DNA of 50,817 nucleotides from NCBI GenBank assembly GCA_000934665.2, contig KZ538737.1, forward strand, positions 1-50,817, given 5' to 3'. This document shows, one piece after another, positions 839-50,817 of the stretch; position 1 is the first letter of the stretch, and each line of letters opens with the position of its first letter. This stretch comes from Catajapyx aquilonaris. Taxonomy: Eukaryota. Position numbers and translations under genes: made by a program. The notes below the pieces were generated by a model. It had not been told where the DNA came from. It was given only the letters and a program-made list of their open reading frames with translations, and searched no databases.

Positions 839-1073
839 CCATTTTTTTTTTTTTCCAGTGCAAATTTTTCGCGAATTATCGTATCGACTTGATTATTCCG
901 CATCGTCGTTGCCAAGTGTGCGTGTGGCGCATTATTGATCTCGTGTATGCAGCAAGCTCAGAGAGGTAATTAATCGGGCGCAGACATGGAAGGACTGGTT
1001 AGGTTAAAGGGGGTAGCTCTCCAAAAAAATCTGTTGCAAAAATAATTTGTGCTGAAAATTTTCTGCAGGTGTG

Positions 1074-1994
1074 ATGATCAGGGCACTGTTGCGTGGCTGC
1101 TGGACTCACACTGCACGAGGAGCTGCGGCCGTACATGTCAGACGGGGACTGGTGGTGTCTCGTTACCATGCGGACCGGACGCCACAGCTCGTCACAGGGT
1201 GTGCCAGGAGGTTTTGCACCCAGCAGAACGGGTATTGCAAGCCGTTATGTGCACCGAGTACAGGTCATTAACCGCGCTTGTTCATGCAGCGCTTCATTGA
1301 GCGAGGTTGAGTATTCGCGCCTGGCCGAGGAGACGCTTGACTCCCTCTCGGAGTACTTCGACGAGTTGCTTCAGGACCTGAAGGAAGCGGACGTTGCTTA
1401 CGGGGTAATCAGGCAGCATTCTTATGCTTCACGTACGTATACTTCATTTGCTGGGTTGCTGGCATTTGCAGGATGGGGTGCTGACCGTCGTCTTGGGGCC
1501 AACCATCGGCACTTACGTTATAAACAAGCAGACGCCCAACAAGCAACTATGGCTCTCCTCGCCTTTAAGCGGACCTAAAAGGTATACCTCTATCGACACA
1601 TTTTCTGAGGCTGCGAAATAAATTTATTTATTTATTAGTAACTAATAATAAATTTTCTATATGCTAATCATTCATTATAAATTTTCTATTAGTTATTAAT
1701 GATAATCTATTTATTAGTTATTAATGATAATAATCTGATGTAGCGAATCGACCTGCTTCTAATAAGCTCGTTACTGTCGCAATATTGCAACAGTAAAACT
1801 GAAGGTGAGCCATATACAAAAATAGAGCAACACCTAGAGCAAAATTATCTTCTCAATGTTTCAGGTACGACTACATCGACAATCGCTGGGTGTACAAGCA
1901 CGACGGAATATCCCTTCATTCCTTTCTAACCAAGGAGATATCTGCTGCCTTAAACCGCTCGGTTGACTTCTCCCGCTGTGCGTACGGGAAGTAG
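1074..1994 (+). CDS. FXN: Frataxin (mitochondrial iron/Fe-S cluster assembly protein), ~170 aa
   Basis: Exons 1074-1231, 1290-1404, 1472-1581, 1865-1994, all GT-AG and phase-consistent. Arg-rich N-terminal targeting peptide, then [19 protein letters not shown]...DGVLTVVLG...[28 protein letters not shown]...[11 protein letters not shown] (frataxin/CyaY signature). Probable 5'UTR intron 966-1068. Confidence 0.96.
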
Positions 1995-2018
1995 ATGGTG
2001 CAGTGCAAAGTGTAGACG

Positions 2019-5000
2019 ATGGAATCAGGCAAATTAATAGATGTAATTCAGGATGGCTTCCAGCGTGAGCGGAAAGAGTTCGAGGACACTGGGAAGTTGG
2101 AATCAGTATTTTTGTGCCATAAGGTTCGAGGAGGGCCATTGGACTACCCTGGGGCGATTTCACGAGCTGTTGCCGATGTTGCGAGCGGTTGGGAAGAGCA
2201 CTTTCAAGCGCTGTTTGTCCATCGGATTGGCAACAAGGGAAGCTCCCTGGACATGAACTCGATTCGGGTATGTTAGACGCTTGAAGGTGTCCAACCTGTT
2301 CTAAACTTTTGATCTCCAGGCGAGTGTGGATGATGCGGGAAGCACCGCGTCCATTGCGGCCATGGGCGACTCGGTTGCGAACCGAAGCCGCAGCAGCCGT
2401 TCTGGGGTAGCCAGCGAGGCTGACTTGGCGTCCGTAGTGGCCCAGTCGTGCCATATGGCCGAGGAGCATCTGAGCTTGCTGGCTAAGGATGCATCGGAGC
2501 GGGGAATCCTCGATGCCCTTCCGCTAGTGCTGGGAGGCGCCGTGCTTCTCCGCAACACCCTATGGTGCTATGAGGACTTCTGCAAAGGCTCGGATGACAC
2601 CACCGGAAAAGGCGATGGGATATTCAAACCAAGCTACAGGTTGGTTCGGTACCGACAATGTTTATCTGTAATCCGATCGCCGTGTTCACAGGCTAATGTG
2701 TGGACTTGCGGACGGTGTAGCCGAGCAGCTTCTGGAAGCGCAGTCTGCCCGTGTCGCCACATGCGTACTTGCCTCACCGGATTGCCAGCAGTGGGACGAC
2801 CCTCGGCCGTTCTTCGAAGGCGAACGAGGCTCCTACGCACTCCAAATGTGGTGGACGCACATGCAAGGTCTTCGCCAGGATCTAAGCGGCGCACTTCCGC
2901 CCAAAATATCGCAGCGGCTTCTCACCGCAATTTTAAATGAATCCCTGTCGATTTTAACGTCCCGGTACTGCCGAGCGTACCCATCGCAACACAGATGGCC
3001 GCAATATGTTAATGATCTTGTCGACTTGCTGTGGTGTTGCGGCGATCTGTTGCTGTGCTGTTCGTCATCGATGCGTCAGTTGGGCGGACGTGACGATGGC
3101 GTTGGCCGGGAAGGCAACAAGGCTCTAGCTGCAGTTCATGCTAAGTGCGACCTGCTCTTTGCGTTTCTGGCGCTGTTAGGCCCGTCACTCGGAGCTGTCT
3201 GTAAGGTAAGGACGCTCACTTTCGAACGGTCCTCTTAATTACAATTAATCAGAGCTTCCAGAAGGGCGTCTCCGAGTCGGTTTTGACTCACCGACCTGAC
3301 CGCCGGCCGACGTATCCGCCGTGGTTGACTATCCTGCGACCTGAACTGTTCAGGACACAACCTGACGGACAGCTGACTCCTGAAGCGGACTTGTACCTAG
3401 AGACGGCTTTACTTGAAGCACAACCCGAGCCGCTTTGGGCGCTCATGATTAAGGTACATTTGTTTCTTATTGTCGGCTCTATTTAATTAGTGTCGTTTAC
3501 AGGTGCTGATGAGCCACGGTGCAATGCTGACGAAGCTGATCCTCAGCACCTTAGCAGAAAGGCAGTGCGACCAATGCTGCGTTACAATGTCCAATGAAGT
3601 GCCAAGTCCGCGGTGTTCACGGTATATGTGCGGAGACGGCGGCGGCGTTTGCGTCGTTAAGGAGAAATGCTTATGCCACACTGTCTGTTCCGCTCTAATG
3701 TACCTGCTGGTCCACACCCAGAAGCGACGAGAGGTCGTACAGGCGGTGGTCCGGCCCGTTCTGGGGCAGGTTAAGGAGTAAGTACTGCACAGTCGAGTCC
3801 AGTTGAGGATACTAAGCATCTTAGTCCACAGCTGGTCGATATTGGACAAGTCGCAAGTGTGGAATACCCGCCGGCCATCCTGGTATCGCGCTTTGACCGA
3901 CTTGGTTGAGCCGTACTTGGAAGCGGGGATACTCGGGTTGGTTCTAGACGAGGAGTGGAGTGAGGAGCGGGATACGGATGTCCCGCGAGCTGTAACCGCA
4001 CTGATGTCAAGTCTCGGGGAGGCGGCTCCGTCACTTCCGCCGTTACTTCCGCATTTGCTGGCGCTTTTAGATGACCTAGCGCCGCCGGATGTGAAGCCGT
4101 TGGGTGGCAGTTGCGGCGTGCAGGTCATGGCATCGTCGCTGTACTCCCTACTGAACGATATGGGCCGAGTGGAGGAGCTAGTCGGAGCTGCGTTGGGCGA
4201 AGGCGATAAGGATCTGCTCATTGCGGTTGCGGAACGGTTGTGCCACCTGGACGCTGAAGTCGGTTTGGGCGAGCAGATGCAGGAGGTCAGACGCCAGCTT
4301 CGGATGGGGTAAGCCCACGTGAATGTGATTCCATCGTAATGTGTTTAATCACGGACATTTCCAGTGCGGAGGAGGCCAACTGGGAGGAGATCCACTTCGA
4401 GGACCTAAGCAGCGACGATCCCGAGGCCATGTCCATCGCAGAGGTCATGGCGGACTGGGTCCTCTCCGAGGAGCGGGGCAAGATGGCCATGCAGACCCTC
4501 CACTGGTTCCTGGTCTCCAACCTGGCCTGGGTCAGAGAAGCCCTGGGGTTGACCTCCGCCGGTCACCGAGGCTCCTCCGGGACGATGCTGCACCTGCACG
4601 TGGAGAAGGCCAAGGCTCCCACCCTCCAGATGTACCAGTGGATCGGAGACAGGCATTTCAACGAGGTGAGGCTGCCATGGTACATATGATGCCATGGTAC
4701 AAGTTGCTATGCTAACCCATTGCCGAGCAAAACCATTGCTGTGTGTAAACTGCTGCCATGCAAACTTTGTTGCCATTTTACGTGTTTCCATGCTAACATG
4801 TTGCAATTGCAAACTGTTGACATGCTAAGCTGTTTCCATGCTAACCCATTGCCATATGCTAGCATGTTGCCATGCTAAACAAAACTGTTTCCATGCTGAC
4901 CTGTTGCTATGCTAAACCATCGCCATGCTAACCTGTTGTCATACCAACCGATTGCCATGCTAAAATGTTTCCATGCTAACATGTTGCCATGCAAACCTTT

Positions 5001-5653
5001 GCCATGCTGACCTGTTGCTAATGCTCCACTGTTGCATTGATAAACCTGTTGGCATGCTAAACAGTTGTTGCCATACTAATTGTTGCCATGCTAACTTTGT
5101 TGCCATGCTGATGACCTGTTGCCAATGCTAAACTCTAACCATGCTGACCCATTTCCATGCTTACCTGTTGCCATGCTAAACTGCTTTTATGCTGAACTGT
5201 TGCTATGCTAACATGTTGCCATGATAAAATGTTTCCATGCTAAAACCTGTTGCAATGCTAAATCAATATTGCTATGCTGCCATGTTTGCAATATGCTAAG
5301 CTGTGTCCATGACGAACTCTTGCCATGCTGACCAGTTGCCGTATGTTACTTTGTTGCCATGGTACATGTTGCCATGGTACATGTTGCCACGCTGGCCGAA
5401 CTTGGACAAACAAACAAGCTCTTTGTCTTTTTATCCGCGTATGAGTATAGAGATTGTTTTTGCCGCGTTCCAGGTCCTGGCAGGCACTTTCCAGGTGGAC
5501 TGGCCTCTGATCCTCCAGACCAAGATGGGCCTGAGCAAGGACTTTGTCCAGAGGGTGATCCAGCACAGGTGGGAGCTGCATGGGGACGCACAGCTCAACA
5601 AGTCCGACCAGGAGATGCTCCAGACCCTGATGGCCTCCGTCGGGGAGGAATAG
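2019..5653 (+). CDS. KIAA0825: KIAA0825-like protein (DUF4495 family), ~838 aa
   Basis: Exons 2019-2267, 2320-2639, 2692-3205, 3253-3453, 3503-3777, 3832-4308, 4365-4665, 5474-5653, all GT-AG and phase-consistent. WDDPRPFFEGERGSYALQMW...LPPKISQRLLTAILNESLSILTSRYCRAYPS matches the conserved core of KIAA0825 as I recall it. The start codon is the least certain part. Confidence 0.85.
4670..5392. repeat. Intronic satellite of ~16-18-bp units (TGTTGCCATGCTAAC)
   Basis: Dozens of degenerate copies fill most of intron 7 (4666-5473) of the KIAA0825-like gene. Confidence 0.9.
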
Positions 5654-6658
5654 GTCTGCTGCGGCTTTAATTTTTTTTAAAAAAGGTTGTTTCTAACTAT
5701 GCCGTCGGATGTTGTGCGGAAAATTTGTTGTTGAATTTCTTTGCTCTTGTTGGACGTATATGTTGTGCTACATGTTCACCTATGAAGCCTCTACCAACTG
5801 TAGTAGACCCACTCTTCCCTTCTACTGTAAGCGCATCAAGTGGTCTCGATCACTTCTGTTTATTAGTAAATATTAGCTGTATTTTACCACACTTCAACAA
5901 TAGTCAGTGAAATCGCCTGTAGCCATCACGTATTTAAAAAATTGTTGAGAATTTACACTCATTTGTCGTCAATTTATCTCCATAAAAATTAATTTCAGGC
6001 GAGTGTCCTGAGAAAACCTGCATTGACATAGAGAGAACCCATGCTCAATCAGCGGTTACTGTGCTGAAAAAAATAGCCTGGATACTAGGACAATAATACG
6101 AATTTTTTATGCGCAGCATTACATAAATATGAGCCGTATAAACATTTAAAAAAATTATAATGTAAATTATTATACACACCATGACCGTGCATGATTGAAA
6201 ATGTCCCGCCATCTTTGATGTAGACGCCTCTTCTTATTACACAATCGTCAGTCGTTAATTATTAAATTAGTTAATATATTAAAAATTAATCCGTCGTAAA
6301 AAAATATTATGACCCATTTAAATTATTAAAATGCGATTTACATTTAGTGTCGCTTTACAGCCGCTCGCAATTCGTGGCGCTTCAGTCGAATAGAACGCGG
6401 CAAGTACATCCAGCAAATGAATCGACAATTTTTTTGCCTAATTACGCCGCTTAATTACCCGTCTGTCGCGTCCTAATTAAACTACAGGTTTGTACGCAAC
6501 AGCTAATTGCACAAGCGCACTTTTATGCATTGCAAATATACCAATTATAATTGAATTAGAATCCTGGCAAAGCACGTGCCGGGACTTTAGACATAATATG
6601 TGCACAGAAAAATTAATTAATATTTGTTATTAATTAATTAAAAGTTCGTTTCCAGCAA

Positions 6659-7625
6659 ATGGAAGTTCCAATATTTTCTAATGTGAAGGAGGAGCAATTC
6701 AGAGAGGAAGTTGCGGCCAAGAGAATTCCGGTTGTCATACGTGGGGCGGACGTAGGTTCTTGCGTAGCCAAATGGACGCCGGAATATCTGGAGAGGAAGC
6801 TTGGTTCGAAGGAGGTTAAAGTTCATGAGTCAGTAGAAGCGCGCTTGGATTTTGTGCAGAAAAATTTCAAGTACGTTACGATGCGATTTGGTGACCTGAT
6901 GAAGGAAGCTGTCGCGTCCCGGAGATACTACTACTTGAGAAGCCTCGGAGCTGATCCGAGAGGACGGGATGTGGCCCAGTTCGAATCGCAGTATCCGGAG
7001 ATTGCTGATGACCTGAAAATTCCTTGCTTTTATCCGTCGGACTCCAAATTTTCAAGCGTGTTTAGAGCTGGATCCGCAAACGTGCAGCTTTGGACTCACT
7101 ACGATGTGATGGACAACGTTTTGATTCAGGTCACCGGACGCAAGCGGGTCGTCCTATTCTCACCGGATGATGCGTTGAACCTGTACTTAAACGGAGACAA
7201 ATCTGAGGTTAAGGACATTGATAATCCGGATTTGGAAAAGTTCCCGAGGTTCTCGCAAGTGAAGCGGTTTGAATGTCGGCTTGAACCTGGCGACATTTTA
7301 TTCATCCCCGCTCTTTGGTTTCATAACGTGACCTGCCTCGAGTTTGGCGTTGCGGTGAACGTGTTCTGGCGACACTTGGACGCTAGTATGTACGATAAAA
7401 AGGACAGCTACGGGAATAAGGATTTGGTGCCTGCATCGTTGGTAAGAATGCTTTGGAAAAATAAAAGTCAAATTACGGATCATGTGTTATTTGCAGGCAC
7501 TCGCTACGTTGGACCGAGCTCTGAAGCAGCTAGAGCTTTTACCAGACGATTACAAGAAATTTTACGCTAGACGTATGATATCTAGGATAGAGCATAGAAT
7601 GGGAATTAATACGTGCGATGCATAA
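6659..7625 (+). CDS. TYW5: tRNA wybutosine-synthesizing protein 5 (JmjC/cupin hydroxylase), ~303 aa
   Basis: Exons 6659-7441 and 7497-7625 (55-nt GT-AG intron). JmjC motifs LWTHYDVMDN and LEPGDILFIPALWFHNV; TYW5-typical YYLRSLGADPR, DSYGNKD and C-terminal LDRALKQLELLPDDYKKFYARRMI. AATAAA at 7641. Likely 5'UTR intron 6488-6655. Confidence 0.95.
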
Positions 7626-23100: not shown

Positions 23101-26100
23101 GTAAATAATTTGCGACGGAGTATACTGTTGATACGGAAGTAACATAAATATTGAATAATAAAAGAGCATTGTTGGTGGTCCAGAAGGTGTTACACTTTTT
23201 TTTGGTTGTTGTTGTTGCGAACATAACATGCTGTAGGAAAAGCATCTTTAGAAACGTGCGAAAATGGCGTCACATTATAGGGTCGATATTCCTCTCTAGT
23301 GTCTCAGGGATTCCCCCTCGCTCCGGAAACAACGACTCTAATTAATTAATTAATTAAATACAGGGTTAGCAGGAGTGGCGCCAATCGCTTGACAGCAAAA
23401 TTCAAATTTGCAGGAAAAAAAAGCAGGCTATAATTTGTCATTACTATCATTGCTATTTGTTATTATATTATTTGTGAAATTGTTTATTTTTAGTTATTAT
23501 TAGTTATGTGCGGTTATTGTTACTTTATTTTATTCTATATTATTTTAATATTTCTTTTATTATTAATTTATTTGTCTATTTTAGTTTTATTATTAGTAGT
23601 TTATTCGAATTCATTGCTCATTTTATTTTCGTTATTTAATATTTTACTCTGTTATCGCTTAATATTTATTATGTCAATAATATGTTAATTCATTACATAT
23701 TTATTTTTATTTGATATTTTATTCTGTTATTGCTTAATATTTATCCTGTAAATAATTTGATATTAGTTCATTACATATTTATGCCAATAATATTTGATAT
23801 TAATTCATTACATATTTATTTCAATTTAATGATGTTTGATATTAATTGATTTTTTTTTTCGGATTCCGACCTTGTCTGGTTGTGTTCCAGGTTTAGGGTT
23901 TGGAGCTAGGGGATGGCGGGGTTAGGGTAGATGAAGGGAGTAACTACACAACCCTCCTTTCCTCCCCACCCACCCACCATCCCCCCACCAGGCCATGGTT
24001 TTCCTCCAGCGTGTGCTGAATTGATTGCCTTGAGTAAGAACGTCCGGCGCAGGTCCTTGTTAACTCCACTACATTATCTGTGCCCGTGTCAAATATATTT
24101 AAAAAAAAGAGCACAGCAGCCAAAACAACAACAAGAGGACACAATATTAATTTTTTTTTCTTCTTACTCCGGAGTATCTTTGCGGAAAATTGGAAGAACG
24201 TGGTAAATAGGTTTTAGCTAACGGGAAACTTCTAGTATCAAAACCTGGAGCTGCAAAATAATTGGCCGGCAAAATGTCTGGAGCGAGGAGGAAATGGGTG
24301 TGGCTTGCGGTTTTTGGGGAGGGATGGGAAGGGGGGGTGGGGTGGGAGGATAGAGGGGGGGTTGTCGCCAATTTTGAGAAAAGGAGGGGGGGAGGGGAGG
24401 GGGGACTTTATCGATCTTTTGGGCCAAAAGGACCCAGCAGCTTCTCCAAATCAACAGTTGCAAGACGAAGCTTACAAAATGATACACCGGAATTACAGCG
24501 CAGATATTCGCAAAAAAAAAAAAATCTGCAAGAATACAATAAAGCAGAGATATAAGCATTACTGGTTTGAAAGAAATGAAAATAGGAGTAGGAATCAATA
24601 AAATGAAAATAAATAATGAAAACAAGATATTAATAAATAAAAGTTAAGTGGCAAAAATAAAATAAATCGAAGGGATAAAATTGCCAGTTTCTATAATTTG
24701 CGAATTAAACACACAGTTGTATGAAAATGTAGAAATGAAATAAATAGTTAAAATTAAAATGTAAAATAAATAAATAAAAGTTGTAAAAATAAAGCAGATA
24801 TATAAAAATTACCAGCAGTTTCAAAATCTGGACAATGAATAATAATGGCATTAAAATGCGAAATAAAATGGAAAAAAACATGTGTATAGACGAAATAAAA
24901 TAAATAACAATTAAAATCACAGATAAACTAAATATAAATGTGAATGAAATAAATACTAAATAACAATTAAAATTAGAAAATTAAATAATATAACTATAAA
25001 TAAAATAAATATATACCTAAATAAAAAATGAAATAAATATATAGTCTACCTAAATAAATAAAAATTAAATAAATGTATCCCAAAATGTATAAAAACTGCA
25101 CAACAGTAATGGTACCGTATTATAAATATCGAAATGACATAAAAATAATAAGGTATATAAAATAATACATGAATAAATAAAATGCCATTTAAAAAAAATG
25201 CAAATAAAATAAATAAAAGTTGCAAAAAAGAAATCAAATATAAATTTCAAATTGCAAAAAAAGGTCAACAAATCAGTGGGATTAATATCGTTATCACTTG
25301 GGTTAAGTTCACAGGTGATAATCAACATGTCGCAATAATTCAGTGTGGAGGGGGGAGGGGGGCAACAAGATATGACCTTTTTGATTTATTTATAAAAAAA
25401 AGTGTCACTCTCTCGCAGTCACAAACTGTCCAGATTTTTTTTTTACAATTATTATTCGAACTTATTGTTTTCTCTTTTCGTGCCAATTGCATACGGAATG
25501 AGTTTAACGTCCCTGTAAACAATTGCTTGTGTGTGTTTTTTTTCTTCTGCATGTTGTGACGATTATTTGGTGGAAAGTTTTGGGAGCCCGTTATATGAAG
25601 GTGGGGTTTGGAGGGGGGGGGGGGGGNNNNNNNNNNNNNNNNNNNNNNNNNNNNNNNNNNNNNNNNNNNNNNNNNNNNNNNNNNNNNNNNNNNNNNNNNN
25701 NNNNNNNNNNNNNNNNNNNNNNNNNNNNNNNNNNNNNNNNNNNNNNNNNNNNNNNNNNNNNNNNNNNNNNNNNNNNNNNNNNNNNNNNNNNNNNNNNNNN
25801 NNNNNNNNNNNNNNNNNNNNNNNNNNNNNNNNNNNNNNNNNNNNNNNNNNNNNNNNNNNNNNNNNNNGGGGGGGAGGTACCAGCCACCGGGATTATGTTT
25901 GCGAAATAATGGCCATAAGTTTTGATATGACCCACTTGGCATTTTTGCGTCAATCGTCGACTCCCACTAGTTTTGTGTGTGAGTGGGCGATAGCGTCACT
26001 GACAATGTCGGTGTCGCCCACTCAGTTGTCGACGTCGGTTTTTTTCTGTACGTATTTACAGACGTAGGCAAGCAGGTGCGCACAGCTTCCTAACCGAGTC

Positions 26101-45796: not shown

Positions 45797-46309
45797 CTAT
45801 GTTAAACCATACTTATTTCGATAAAAATGAGCCATTTCCGCTAGCAACACCAGGACACAACCCAGGATGCCAAGAATCCACGTGTTGAAGATGGCTCCCA
45901 ACTTGTCCATTGTCATCACTTCATCTCGAACGTATGTCTTGGCAGCGATCTCTTCCGCCTCTAGGATCCTCCTCAGGTTGCGGAGGAAGTTCATGTACTT
46001 CTCGTGCTTGATGAAGGTGTCGAATAAATTGCTCTCCGCAGCCATGTCCACTACTTTTCTTTGAATGTGAAACAGTTGGGTTTGGCTTTTCGCAGTCGCA
46101 GCGAAGGCATAACCAGAGTAACTGTCGTCTTGGAGGTACTGAAGGTTCAAGGTCCCATCACTGCTCGTGTGAAGATACGTTGCTCTCTCAAGGAGAAGAT
46201 TCACGCCAACGCAGACAACGTTATGTTGTCGAGTATTGCGCAGACAATCCTGAAGAGTGCCCTTCATTTGCATACGCTTACATAACTCAACCACTGCGGG
46301 ATCTTGAGC
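45797..46309 (-). pseudogene. 5'-truncated ionotropic receptor duplicate (S2 lobe and last TM only)
   Basis: Collinear, at an offset of exactly 3600 bp, with the C-terminal ~170 aa of 49397..50817 (AQDP.VVE.CK...HEKYMNFLRNLRR.LEAEEIAAKTYVRDEVMTMDKLGAIFN.WILG). Homology stops abruptly at ~46309 and no upstream IR exon was found. Confidence 0.75.
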
Positions 46310-46969
46310 ATATAATATTGGTAAATTGGAGAGTCCCTTTAATGATCATGTAACGGCAATTTGCCCCATTTAATGCCCATCAATCAGAACACATTACACG
46401 CATCCCTGACCCTGCATCTGCTTTTCAACAGACCATGACTCCATCAAGTGGGCATCAATCGGTGTTTGCCCCGAATCCCTCTGTATAGCCGCGCCTCTTC
46501 GGCTGGAGCCCAGGGCCGCCCCCGGTGCTTCTCCGAGGGCGCAAATGGACCAAGGGCCAGCAAGATTAAGGCGGATCAATGTTTTTTGTTGCCTTTTAGC
46601 AATCATAAGTATATTACAAGAGCATTAACACTTGATGTTTTCCATAGGAAACTCAGTAGTAATCCTCCCGATGGTATCTTACTTCACCTTGTCGTGGTGC
46701 TGCAGCTTGCGTTTCTCCCATGACCCCAAGAGCTATGCCGGTGGTAGCTTTAGTGTACCCATGGATAGGACATGTCTTTGGGATAGGAGACAGACTAAGC
46801 GAGACACCAGTCTCTCTTCGTCTCTATCTCCATCTGTTCCCTCTGTCCTCCGTCCTCTGTCCTCTATCCTCCCGGGTCCGTCTCTGTCCTCTGTCCTCTG
46901 TCCCTCAGTTTTTAAGTATGTGTACACAAATGTTTGACATTACATGTGAGAATATAAATAAAATAACTA

Positions 46970-49396: not shown

Positions 49397-50817
49397 TCAT
49401 ATTCGACCAGGCGTTATTCGACAAAAATGAGCAATTTCCGCCGCCAGTACCACTACACAGCCCAGCAAGCCCAGAATCCACATGTTGAAGATGGCTCCCA
49501 ACTTGTCCATTGTCATCACTTCATCTCGAACGTATGTCTTGGCAGCGATCTCTTCCGCCTCTAGGACCCTCCTCAGGTTGCGGAGGAAGTTCATGTACTT
49601 CTCGTGATTGATCCAAGTTTCTAATAAGTTGGTGCCCACAACCACGTCCACCACTTTTCTTGTCAAGTGAAACAGTTGGGTTTGGCCTTTTGCAGTACCG
49701 GCAAAGGTATACGCAGAGAATCTTTCTTCTTGGAGCCATTGAAGGTTCAGGGTCCCATCACTGCTCGTGTGAAGATACGTTTCTCTCTCTAGGAGAACGT
49801 TGAAACCAATGCAGACAACGTCGTCATCTCGAGTTTTACGCAGACAATTCTGGGTAGTACCTCCCATTTTAATGCACTTACACATCTCAACCACAACGGG
49901 ATCCTGAGCCGTTTTACAGTAGTGACTTAGAAGGAGATAGTTTAACATATCCCCTTCCATATTCCAGTTTGAATATATTATTTCTTGGAAAGTGGTTGGA
50001 ACAAATTCTCTCGGGGGCCATGTCAGGAAGGACACTAGTTTGGCCCTGTACCCAGTGGTGATCACCATGACAAACATGAGCATACATGCAGTGAAGGTAA
50101 TTGCGAAGTGTCTTCCTGTCAGATTCTCATTCTGCTCCATCAGAGTTCGCAAAATGAGGCCGACTGATTGTGAAAATGACAGAGTACTGGTCGAGTTACG
50201 TCTCCGTTTGGATATATAAAATGAGGCGATAAACAGTGTGATTAGACTGAATGCAATCAAGCCCCAGACCAAGAGTGGATAAGGCATGAAGATCACCTTC
50301 CAGGTCACAATTCTTCTAGGGATCCTTGCCAAGCCCGTTCCAAAGGCGAATATGTAAGGTTGGGGAATATTAAGGAATGAGTACGATTCTTCCGAAGCTA
50401 AAATGCATGGTAAGGTATCGGTCTTGTTCTGCACCAGACCACCCACCAACCCTCCCCAGGTTCCGTTTGGGTAACGAGAGTCCAGTTCCACTCGAAATTC
50501 CTCCGTAGTGTACTCCATTTTTCCGCCTATAGCACCTTCCGAAAATATTGACATTCTCTGGTACAAGTCAAGAGAAATCTCACCCTCAGCCTCCTTCTGC
50601 TTCCTCGCAGCTGGCACGTCATTGTCTACGTAGAAACGAACCCTAAATACCCTTCCGTTCATCCTCTTGACGTCGTAGTCTCGAAAGAAGAGATTCACCA
50701 TGCCTCCACCACCGTCATCGGATGGATCGAACACTCCGAGATGCAGTGTTTGTGGGTACCCTCCTTGTGCGCAGTAGAAGCAGACCGTGTCCACCTTGAT
50801 CCGCCCATCGGGGCCAT
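49397..50817 (-). CDS. Divergent ionotropic receptor (variant iGluR chemoreceptor), intronless in window, 5' end off-window
   Basis: The frame stays open to the window edge. S1 NGTWGGLVGGLVQNKTD, M1 LLVWGLIAFSLITLFIA, pore region LILRTLMEQ, M2 ending GYRAKLVSFLT (SYTANLAAFLT equivalent), final TM LGAIFNMWILGLLGCVVVLAAEI. Confidence 0.88.
   Translation of the reverse strand, partial: GPDGRIKVDTVCFYCAQGGYPQTLHLGVFDPSDDGGGGMVNLFFRDYDVKRMNGRVFRVRFYVDNDVPAARKQKEAEGEISLDLYQRMSIFSEGAIGGKMEYTTEEFRVELDSRYPNGTWGGLVGGLVQNKTDTLPCILASEESYSFLNIPQPYIFAFGTGLARIPRRIVTWKVIFMPYPLLVWGLIAFSLITLFIASFYISKRRRNSTSTLSFSQSVGLILRTLMEQNENLTGRHFAITFTACMLMFVMVITTGYRAKLVSFLTWPPREFVPTTFQEIIYSNWNMEGDMLNYLLLSHYCKTAQDPVVVEMCKCIKMGGTTQNCLRKTRDDDVVCIGFNVLLERETYLHTSSDGTLNLQWLQEERFSAYTFAGTAKGQTQLFHLTRKVVDVVVGTNLLETWINHEKYMNFLRNLRRVLEAEEIAAKTYVRDEVMTMDKLGAIFNMWILGLLGCVVVLAAEIAHFCRITPGRI

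Follow-up and report, generated by a model that had tools for sequence, protein, structure and literature searches.

A frataxin gene and a KIAA0825-like gene joined within one exon by a 24-nt spacer form a candidate dicistronic unit in Catajapyx aquilonaris

In a stretch of 50,817 nt from Catajapyx aquilonaris (GenBank assembly GCA_000934665.2, contig KZ538737.1, positions 1 to 50,817 of the forward strand; in the following called the window), a frataxin gene is followed on the same strand by a KIAA0825-like gene, and the stop codon of the first and the start codon of the second lie only 24 nt apart inside a single exon. What the analysis firmly establishes is this short gap, with a genuine and conserved gene on either side, and RNA spans the frataxin stop codon, the spacer and the second ATG without a break. 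We consider it about an even chance (probability around 0.5) that the pair is a dicistronic unit that arose by compaction of an ancient tandem pair, with the second protein made by reinitiation. Frataxin is the Friedreich ataxia protein; KIAA0825, a gene tied in humans to polydactyly and diabetes risk, is just beginning to be understood in its function.

Two intact genes share one exon

Unless stated otherwise, all features lie on the forward (+) strand. The shared exon (1865..2267) is bounded by an AG at 1863-1864, an acceptor confirmed by an RNA joint, and a GT at 2268-2269 and comprises the frataxin C-terminus, the intercistronic spacer (1995..2018) and the KIAA0825-like gene's initial 83 codons. 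Read directly from the sequence, the junction is GGG AAG TAG(1992-1994) ATG(1995) GTG CAG TGC AAA GTG TAG(2013-2015) ACG ATG(2019) GAA TCA, in a single frame throughout. The spacer is made up of a mini open reading frame (mini-ORF) of 6 codons (1995-2015), which abuts the frataxin stop codon and ends with a second TAG, and of the single codon ACG. This agrees with a first-pass annotation, prepared from the letters of the window without database searches, which had described the order stop, ATG, mini-ORF, TAG and ATG in one frame and one exon and had judged the spacer too small for a poly(A) site or a promoter; its 24 nt indeed cannot accommodate both. With a gap of 24 nt, the 3′ end of the frataxin gene and the 5′ end of the KIAA0825-like gene must each overlap the neighboring gene.

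The three start codons at issue differ in their context. AUG 1995 of the mini-ORF is weak, with U at −3, while AUG 1074 of frataxin is good (G at −3, A at +4) and AUG 2019, in ACG ATG G, is the strongest of the three (A at −3, G at +4). By chance, two ORFs share a frame in 1 of 3 cases and an ATG directly follows a stop codon in 1 of 64; the stop-ATG cassette itself could be a chance product.

The frataxin gene was modeled with four exons encoding 170 amino acids, with no internal methionine. Coding exon 1 (1074..1231) comes from the gene model and is covered by an RNA contig from 1067 onward, with its joint at 1230->1289 (+1). Exon 2 (1290..1404), likewise supported by an RNA joint, matched PF01491 with an E-value of 5.2e-4 and 20.6 bits, slightly below the cut-off of 21.3 when this 38-amino-acid piece was searched alone. 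Stronger matches to the same family came from exon 3 (1472..1581; E 5.5e-14; RNA joint 1579->1863 (+2), corresponding to 1581/1865) and from the last coding segment, exon 4 (1865..1994, with the stop codon TAG at 1992-1994; E 3.7e-5). Together, exons 2, 3 and 4 account for profile positions 1-36, 38-73 and 74-106 of 107, and the C-terminus is homologous to the frataxin ends of two metagenome loci introduced below, L001 (..VDFVQCAYSGSNK before the stop) and L004 (..NCSFGRSQ before the stop). Frataxin intron 3 (1582..1864) contains internal direct repeats (tattagttattaatgataat) and, by eye, copies of AATAAA.

For the KIAA0825-like gene, a model of eight GT-AG exons gives an open frame of 838 amino acids from the start at 2019 to the stop at 5651-5653, in line with the length of about 838 amino acids proposed in the first pass. 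The coding part of exon 1 (2019..2267, 83 codons) was linked by BLASTP to two insect orthologues, P0001 and P0004. Exon 2 (2320..2639) is colinear with orthologues by tblastn and matched PF14906 with an E-value of 2.3e-4 (20.8 bits, under the cut-off of 25), whereas exon 3 (2692..3205), the DUF4495 core, reached 2.1e-47 and is covered by an RNA contig over 2776-2959. Exon 4 (3253..3453) follows from GT-AG sites, frame and tblastn; near its junction with exon 3, six alternative choices at 3196-3265 likewise leave the frame open. Exon 5 (3503..3777) is based on tblastn and the gene model, as is exon 6 (3832..4307), to which an RNA contig over 3904-4307 with a joint 4307->4364 adds support. Exon 7 (4364..4665) is covered by an RNA contig over 4364-4667 whose loose end equals the window from 5476 onward; together with tblastn and the model, this loose end supports the last exon (5474..5653). 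Between these last two exons, the final intron (4666-5473, 808 nt) is packed with short, degenerate TGCCATGCTAA(C)-type repeats. Over the gene pair as a whole, eight of ten introns measure 47-67 nt.

In tblastn comparisons the predicted KIAA0825-like protein and its insect orthologues run colinear, starting at residue 3-4 of the orthologues and extending to residue 839 of 846. In single BLASTP comparisons, a gap-free alignment pairs residues 1-66 of the product starting at ATG 2019 with residues 4-69 of the full-length orthologues P0001 and P0004, with identities of 35% and 33% and E-values of 2e-9 and 5e-9. By these alignments, ATG 2019 is the homologous KIAA0825 start; a true start well downstream of 2019, which had been named as one finding that would speak against the proposed unit, is excluded by the alignment to orthologue residue 4. 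A longer N-terminus is impossible because an in-frame TAG lies one codon ahead of ATG 2019. Used alone, exon 1 found no relative in a word search, and phmmer over 1.84 billion representatives returned as its sole match P0121, a repeat protein judged spurious; the N-terminal exon is too diverged for finding relatives alone, and the argument on the start codon is based on the pairwise comparisons.

Among the insect matches listed (see below), the N-terminus ME[VIL]MEEGNLMDR is nearly invariant from dragonflies to flies, and a constraint acting on the start region may lie behind such conservation of its first 12 codons. The window has MESGKLIDVIQ instead, which, on sequence, places its organism outside the insects among the matches listed or on a long branch from them.

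The two ORFs are thus distinct, conserved and non-overlapping on one strand (PF01491 with 170 amino acids, PF14906 with 838). Pfam matches, intact models and homologous ends support the earlier view that both are real genes, and judged by their sequences neither is truncated or extended.

RNA across the junction

RNA data came from one public sequencing run (X1) of unstated type, available as contigs only, which we aligned to positions 900-4700. Four X1 contigs match the window at at least 99% with no differences, with gaps at 1231/1290, 1581/1865 and 4307/4364, all GT..AG. Because the contigs skip introns at GT..AG sites, the run is RNA-derived.

In one of these contigs, which is 215 nt long and has a depth of 2.4, 1533-1579 is joined to 1863-2030. 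This contig passes the frataxin stop codon by 36 nt, enters the second ORF by 12 nt and carries no poly(A) loose end. Over 1863-2030 it shows 0 differences and 0 gaps, so the junction is no assembly error. A contig across two genes is no proof of a single transcript, because overlapping transcripts merge during assembly. The first-pass annotation had held that frataxin mRNA very likely runs into KIAA0825 coding sequence: the spliced exon 3/4 contig, which reaches 2030, bears out the entry into the second gene, while a single molecule carrying both coding regions is something we infer. Contig cover is absent over 2031-2775 and 2960-3903, among others, which is evidence neither way, and the contig depths of 2.3 to 15.8 are unsuited to ranking genes.

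At the other end of the frataxin gene, the RNA contig starts at 1067, at an acceptor-like ttttctgcag/gt (window 1061-1069; the slash marks the possible splice site), 7 nt before ATG 1074. An unseen 5′ exon or leader may precede this ATG.

Linkage of the two genes in other insects

A homologue search with a full-length KIAA0825 orthologue yielded 229 matches, and the details given here are from the 120 listed, all of them insects. Among these matches, at least three proteins carry PF14906 and PF01491 together: P0014 from Frankliniella fusca (thrips), P0024 from Trypoxylus dichotomus (scarab beetle) and P0075 from Odynerus spinipes (wasp). Their junctions read ..IDFNECSHTIRE/MEVMEEGN, ..ISKIIAKK/VMEDGN and ..VIVKKDIYILPT/MEIMEDGN, respectively, the slash marking the joint. 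As in the window, the same two genes follow each other directly, with order and strand unchanged, and P0014 aligns in one piece across the window junction (residues 118-250 on 1821-2216). Unlike the window, P0024 and P0075 lose the frataxin C-terminus, P0075 translates an apparent 5′ untranslated region (UTR), and all three are gene-model predictions. Their junctions resemble splices introduced by the predictor into a 5′ UTR or ORF, and we rely on these three models for order, strand and closeness only. A free-standing KIAA0825 with the start M-[ED]-x-[MLIV]-E-[ED]-G in the first five residues was found in 113 of the 120 listed matches; the other seven comprise the three fusions, two entries that lack part of the N-terminus and two that carry a few additional residues ahead of it.

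Independent of gene models, a metagenome scan with an N-terminal alignment detected ten loci, four of which had at least 2.5 kb of usable upstream DNA. In three of these four (L001, L004 and L009), the last exon of a frataxin gene lies upstream on the same strand. The spacers differ widely: 2961 nt in the termite-like L001, with an ATTAAA 54 nt after the frataxin stop, 295 nt in L004, with no canonical hexamer, and 1562 nt in the ant-like L009, with six hexamers. The frame offsets between frataxin and KIAA0825 are 0, 1 and 2 in L001, L004 and L009, so these loci do not conserve the single frame seen in the window. The comparison of adjacency, frame and mini-ORF that had been suggested in the first pass therefore divides: adjacency holds in three of four loci, the shared frame does not, and the mini-ORF is not comparable in spacers of 295-2961 nt.

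Going by these sequences, the linkage of frataxin and KIAA0825 is old and wide, as it extends over termite-like, ant-like, wasp, beetle and thrips sequences in addition to the window. Within it, the junction of 24 nt represents a compacted and derived condition.

By eye, the insect-like contigs L001, L004, L007 and L009 each show a pyrimidine-AG acceptor-like site 9-28 nt before the KIAA0825 ATG. These sites suggest that the first KIAA0825 coding exon is spliced there to an upstream exon, possibly from the frataxin gene. In termite-like loci, a candidate remnant of a frataxin tail directly ahead of the KIAA0825 ATG was rejected as chance, since its scores lay within those of 300 shuffles per pair.

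Signals around the junction and the favored reading

On the + strand, neither AATAAA nor ATTAAA occurs within 1995-6260. The KIAA0825-like gene has the first ATTAAA in its 3′ flank, at 6261, and AATAAA is found at 7460 and 7641, as the first-pass annotation had stated for the latter hexamer; the 24-nt spacer itself contains no poly(A) signal. A core-promoter scan of 1232-2018 with Drosophila motifs detected three bare initiator (Inr)-like sites and no pair of TATA and Inr or of Inr and downstream promoter element (DPE). The dicistronic reading is favored because a canonical poly(A) signal and a recognizable promoter are both lacking and because dicistronic pairs are frequent in flies; for D. 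melanogaster, 159 such pairs are given, 45 of them exclusively dicistronic for both genes (PMC4528330).

In this reading, an ancient head-to-tail pair, frataxin then KIAA0825, would have been squeezed in this lineage to 24 nt inside one exon. Transcripts from the frataxin promoter would cross the frataxin stop codon, enter about 4.2 kb devoid of canonical poly(A) signals and most likely continue through the seven further KIAA0825 exons to the 3′ end of that gene, giving a dicistronic mRNA. Frataxin would be read from the cap-proximal AUG 1074 and KIAA0825 from AUG 2019. Ribosomes or small subunits finishing at UAG 1992 might resume directly at the strong AUG 2019, 24 nt on; alternatively, they might restart at the abutting AUG 1995, translate six codons and restart a second time 4 nt on. 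Shorter additional transcripts starting inside the frataxin gene may contribute. We infer both the full-length dicistronic molecule and the mode of translation of its second cistron. A restart just past the frataxin stop codon might also protect the mRNA against the decay that a very long 3′ region triggers.

Several observations bear on how ribosomes would reach AUG 2019. The spliced frataxin mRNA contains 6 AUGs before 2019, compared with 7.8 +/- 2.6 in shuffles, hence no depletion; together with the good context of AUG 1074 this makes leaky scanning unlikely. Scanning from the cap would be halted by AUG 1074 and four more AUGs, so that on such an mRNA KIAA0825 would need a restart after termination at UAG 1992. 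Restart sites near the upstream stop codon are described as the rule in known termination-reinitiation, and restart after very short ORFs as efficient, assisted in flies by DENR-MCT-1 (PMC5972666). Here, AUG 1995 abuts UAG 1992 and AUG 2019 lies 24 nt on. The predicted fold of 1925-2075 is less stable than that of most shuffles (z +1.26; 182 of 200 at least as stable), and this unstructured region would be no barrier to a resuming subunit. Rfam gave 0 matches across the window.

A number of points weigh against a dicistronic mRNA translated by reinitiation. No molecule spanning both coding regions is present in the X1 contigs, and because contigs merge overlapping transcripts, the junction contig fits two overlapping mRNAs equally well. 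The missing hexamer is permissive rather than striking: by a rough estimate, about 1 canonical hexamer is expected by chance over this GC-rich stretch of 4.2 kb, and variant poly(A) hexamers do occur, e.g., AATAGA at 2036. With ATTAAA or AATAAA in two of the three related spacers, linkage there needs no shared mRNA, and L005 has no frataxin within 3.8 kb upstream of KIAA0825. Reinitiation is described as normally rare after long ORFs, here 170 codons, and viruses as needing a tethering element (PMC5972666). The viral helper motif UGGGA (TGGGA) is absent from the + strand over 689-2090, with only a CGGGA at the stop codon, and the helper stem (motifs 2 and 2*) of the viral termination upstream ribosome-binding site (TURBS) was not found, no local structure being predicted at 1925-2075. 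Finally, the D. melanogaster polycistronic list (File S1 of PMC4528330) gave no match to CG8971, "frataxin" or neighboring FBgn numbers, a weak negative since the FBgn number was unconfirmed and the symbol fh is too short to search.

A more far-reaching version holds that the pair is an ancient arthropod two-gene unit, in this lineage now a one-exon eukaryotic "operon" with TURBS-free coupling of KIAA0825 synthesis to frataxin translation by termination-reinitiation, and that the linkage reflects a functional tie between mitochondrial iron-sulfur assembly and a membrane-trafficking factor resembling tethering-associated complexes that contain helical rods (CATCHR). We regard this version as unlikely.

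Alternative readings

The most serious alternative, a real possibility that we nevertheless hold to be somewhat improbable, is that two separate mRNAs overlap. Frataxin transcripts would use a weak, non-canonical cleavage signal that lies a few dozen to some hundreds of nt into the KIAA0825-like gene, KIAA0825 would have its own promoter within frataxin intron 3 or exon 4, and the mini-ORF would be a weak, mostly skipped upstream ORF. In flies, neighboring genes of one strand are said to overlap frequently (PMC4528330). In the window, intron 3 stands out by its 283 nt and its AT-richness among introns of mostly 47-67 nt and may represent a small insertion or harbor a promoter; TATAAA occurs in it at 1676 and an Inr-like TCATTC, likewise unpaired, at 1668. 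It is the sole roomy place in which an internal KIAA0825 promoter might sit. Another TATAAA lies at 1519, also inside the frataxin gene. Exon 4 contains no ATG ahead of 1995 and would offer a clean 5′ UTR, and the weak context of the mini-ORF AUG followed by the strong one of AUG 2019 suits skipping of the mini-ORF. The AATAGA at 2036 might serve in cleavage, the hexamers between the genes in the ant-like and termite-like loci suggest that independent transcription is probably ancestral, and the junction contig is equally compatible with both readings. Against two mRNAs stand the scan of 1232-2018, in which the Inr-like sites are not paired with TATA or DPE, the 4.2 kb without a canonical hexamer and the end of the junction contig at 2030 without a poly(A) loose end. 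The present data do not separate a dicistronic mRNA from overlapping mRNAs.

Much weaker is the idea, also raised in the first pass, that readthrough of both UAG 1992 and UAG 2013 yields a functional frataxin-KIAA0825 fusion protein. The ORFs share a frame with just two stop codons between them, gene models predict such fusions in other insects, and readthrough, double readthrough included, is annotated in flies according to the columns of File S5 (PMC4528330). Yet two successive events would multiply small rates, and the fusion-model junctions look like predictor splices. Both stop codons are UAG followed by A, which is not known to be a leaky context. The offsets of 0, 1 and 2 over 295-2961 nt in L001, L004 and L009 mean that an in-frame link is not conserved, and 113 of the 120 orthologues among the matches listed start free-standing. 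We consider a functional fusion very improbable.

Very short intercistronic gaps are typical of spliced-leader operons, and some crustaceans trans-splice. A leader-capped KIAA0825 mRNA could be freed at the AG of CAG 2001-2003 or of TAG 2013-2015, and the frataxin contig does begin, at 1067, at an AG preceded by ttttctgc. However, the sequence ahead of both AGs in the spacer is purine-rich with no pyrimidine tract, the RNA contig passes both without a break or loose end, and the best protein matches are insects, in which we know of no trans-splicing of this kind; this makes a spliced-leader operon hardly credible. Least probable of all is an assembly error at the junction or a dead copy of one partner, for which general caution and the N run near 25.6-25.9 kb of the window could be cited, whereas the RNA contigs cover 1863-2030 with 0 differences and 0 gaps and both genes show open frames, spliced RNA and homologous ends.

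Comparison with known systems

Dicistronic and overlapping gene pairs are already well known in arthropods; the pairing of frataxin with KIAA0825 was not found in print. The dicistronic pairs of D. melanogaster (FlyBase gene_with_dicistronic_mRNA), such as stoned, Adh/Adhr and Mocs2/CG42503 (Crosby et al. 2015, PMC4528330), resemble the window in consisting of two unrelated conserved ORFs that share a strand and are separated by a very small gap, with no poly(A) site or promoter between them; how their second ORF is translated is described there as mostly unknown. They are defined by a processed mRNA spanning both ORFs (PMC4528330), whereas the pair in the window is known from its anatomy and the junction contig. 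Unlike the Drosophila pairs, the window has both ORFs in one exon and one frame, with stop codon and ATG abutting.

Viral termination-reinitiation, as in calicivirus VP1/VP2 and influenza B M1/BM2 (PMC5972666), shares with the window a long upstream ORF that stops beside the restart codon, and the strong downstream AUG of the window fits the "resume and scan" back-up mode described for the viral systems (PMC5972666). The viral systems differ in having a TURBS with UGGGA and a helper stem; the window has neither, concerns a cellular gene, and the dependence of its second ORF on upstream translation is a proposed one. The bicistronic nuclear loci of green algae (PMC7896298, PMC11892635) likewise comprise conserved ORF pairs with short gaps, and theirs are expressed from one mRNA. 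These loci are said to use leaky scanning (PMC7896298, PMC11892635), whereas in the window the upstream AUG context is good and AUGs are undepleted.

The literature search returned no paper pairing KIAA0825 with frataxin and nothing relevant on frataxin as dicistronic or, in insects, bicistronic or, going by the titles listed, on KIAA0825 in Drosophila. The earlier statement that the pairing was unreported holds insofar as no paper with both names was found; as a statement about public databases it is qualified by the three predicted fusion proteins. The fly frataxin paper PMC4956409 contributed rescue-fragment coordinates only.

If one message encodes both proteins, frataxin would be co-expressed with KIAA0825, and the linkage conserved across several insect orders would hint at a shared role. 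The 24-nt junction would then be a compact natural test of how animal ribosomes restart after a long ORF without a viral helper element. If two mRNAs merely overlap, the arrangement would be an ordinary outcome of genome compaction.

KIAA0825 fold and further features of the window

A structure model of the insect KIAA0825 P0001, built with 44 aligned orthologues, reached a predicted local distance difference test (pLDDT) score of 84.3 and a predicted template modeling (pTM) score of 0.85. In a wide structural search it matched helical-rod proteins of the CATCHR type: Munc13 MUN (Z 13.4, root mean square deviation 7.4, 321 aligned residues; further matches with Z 12.7, 12.3 and 12.2), ZW10 (12.3), Sec10 (11.9), Tip20 (11.5 and 11.3), Sec6, COG4, Sec8, Sec15, Exo70 and Exo84, although any helical protein can reach Z-scores as high as about 13. 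Foldseek with the same model against the PDB found no match at E ≤ 0.001, and the literature search no paper linking KIAA0825 with CATCHR. A language-model feature search with the DUF4495 exon of the window (2692-3205) pointed to clusters of Syndetin, ZW10, Sec10, Sec15 and COG7 (score 0.95). We take it as a lead rather than a finding that, by the modeled fold, KIAA0825/DUF4495 looks like a CATCHR-type helical-rod tethering protein. A trafficking role of human KIAA0825 is reported in a 2026 preprint (PMC13596269).

Outside the gene pair, positions 1-400 of the window, upstream of frataxin, hold arrays of repeats of about 30-40 nt (GTACCG..TTGTACTGATTCAACTGGTCGTACTGG). The next gene downstream, about 1 kb past the KIAA0825-like stop codon (6638-7570), encodes a TYW5-like JmjC/cupin hydroxylase (Cupin_8, E 5.2e-49). 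A run of N, an assembly gap, at about 25600-25900 appears as X in translations. On the reverse (−) strand, two similar open frames at 45797-46345 and 49397-50815 have arthropod Lig_chan proteins as their nearest Atlas clusters (score 0.97) and, by sequence, look like paralogous genes for ionotropic receptors (ligand-gated channels).

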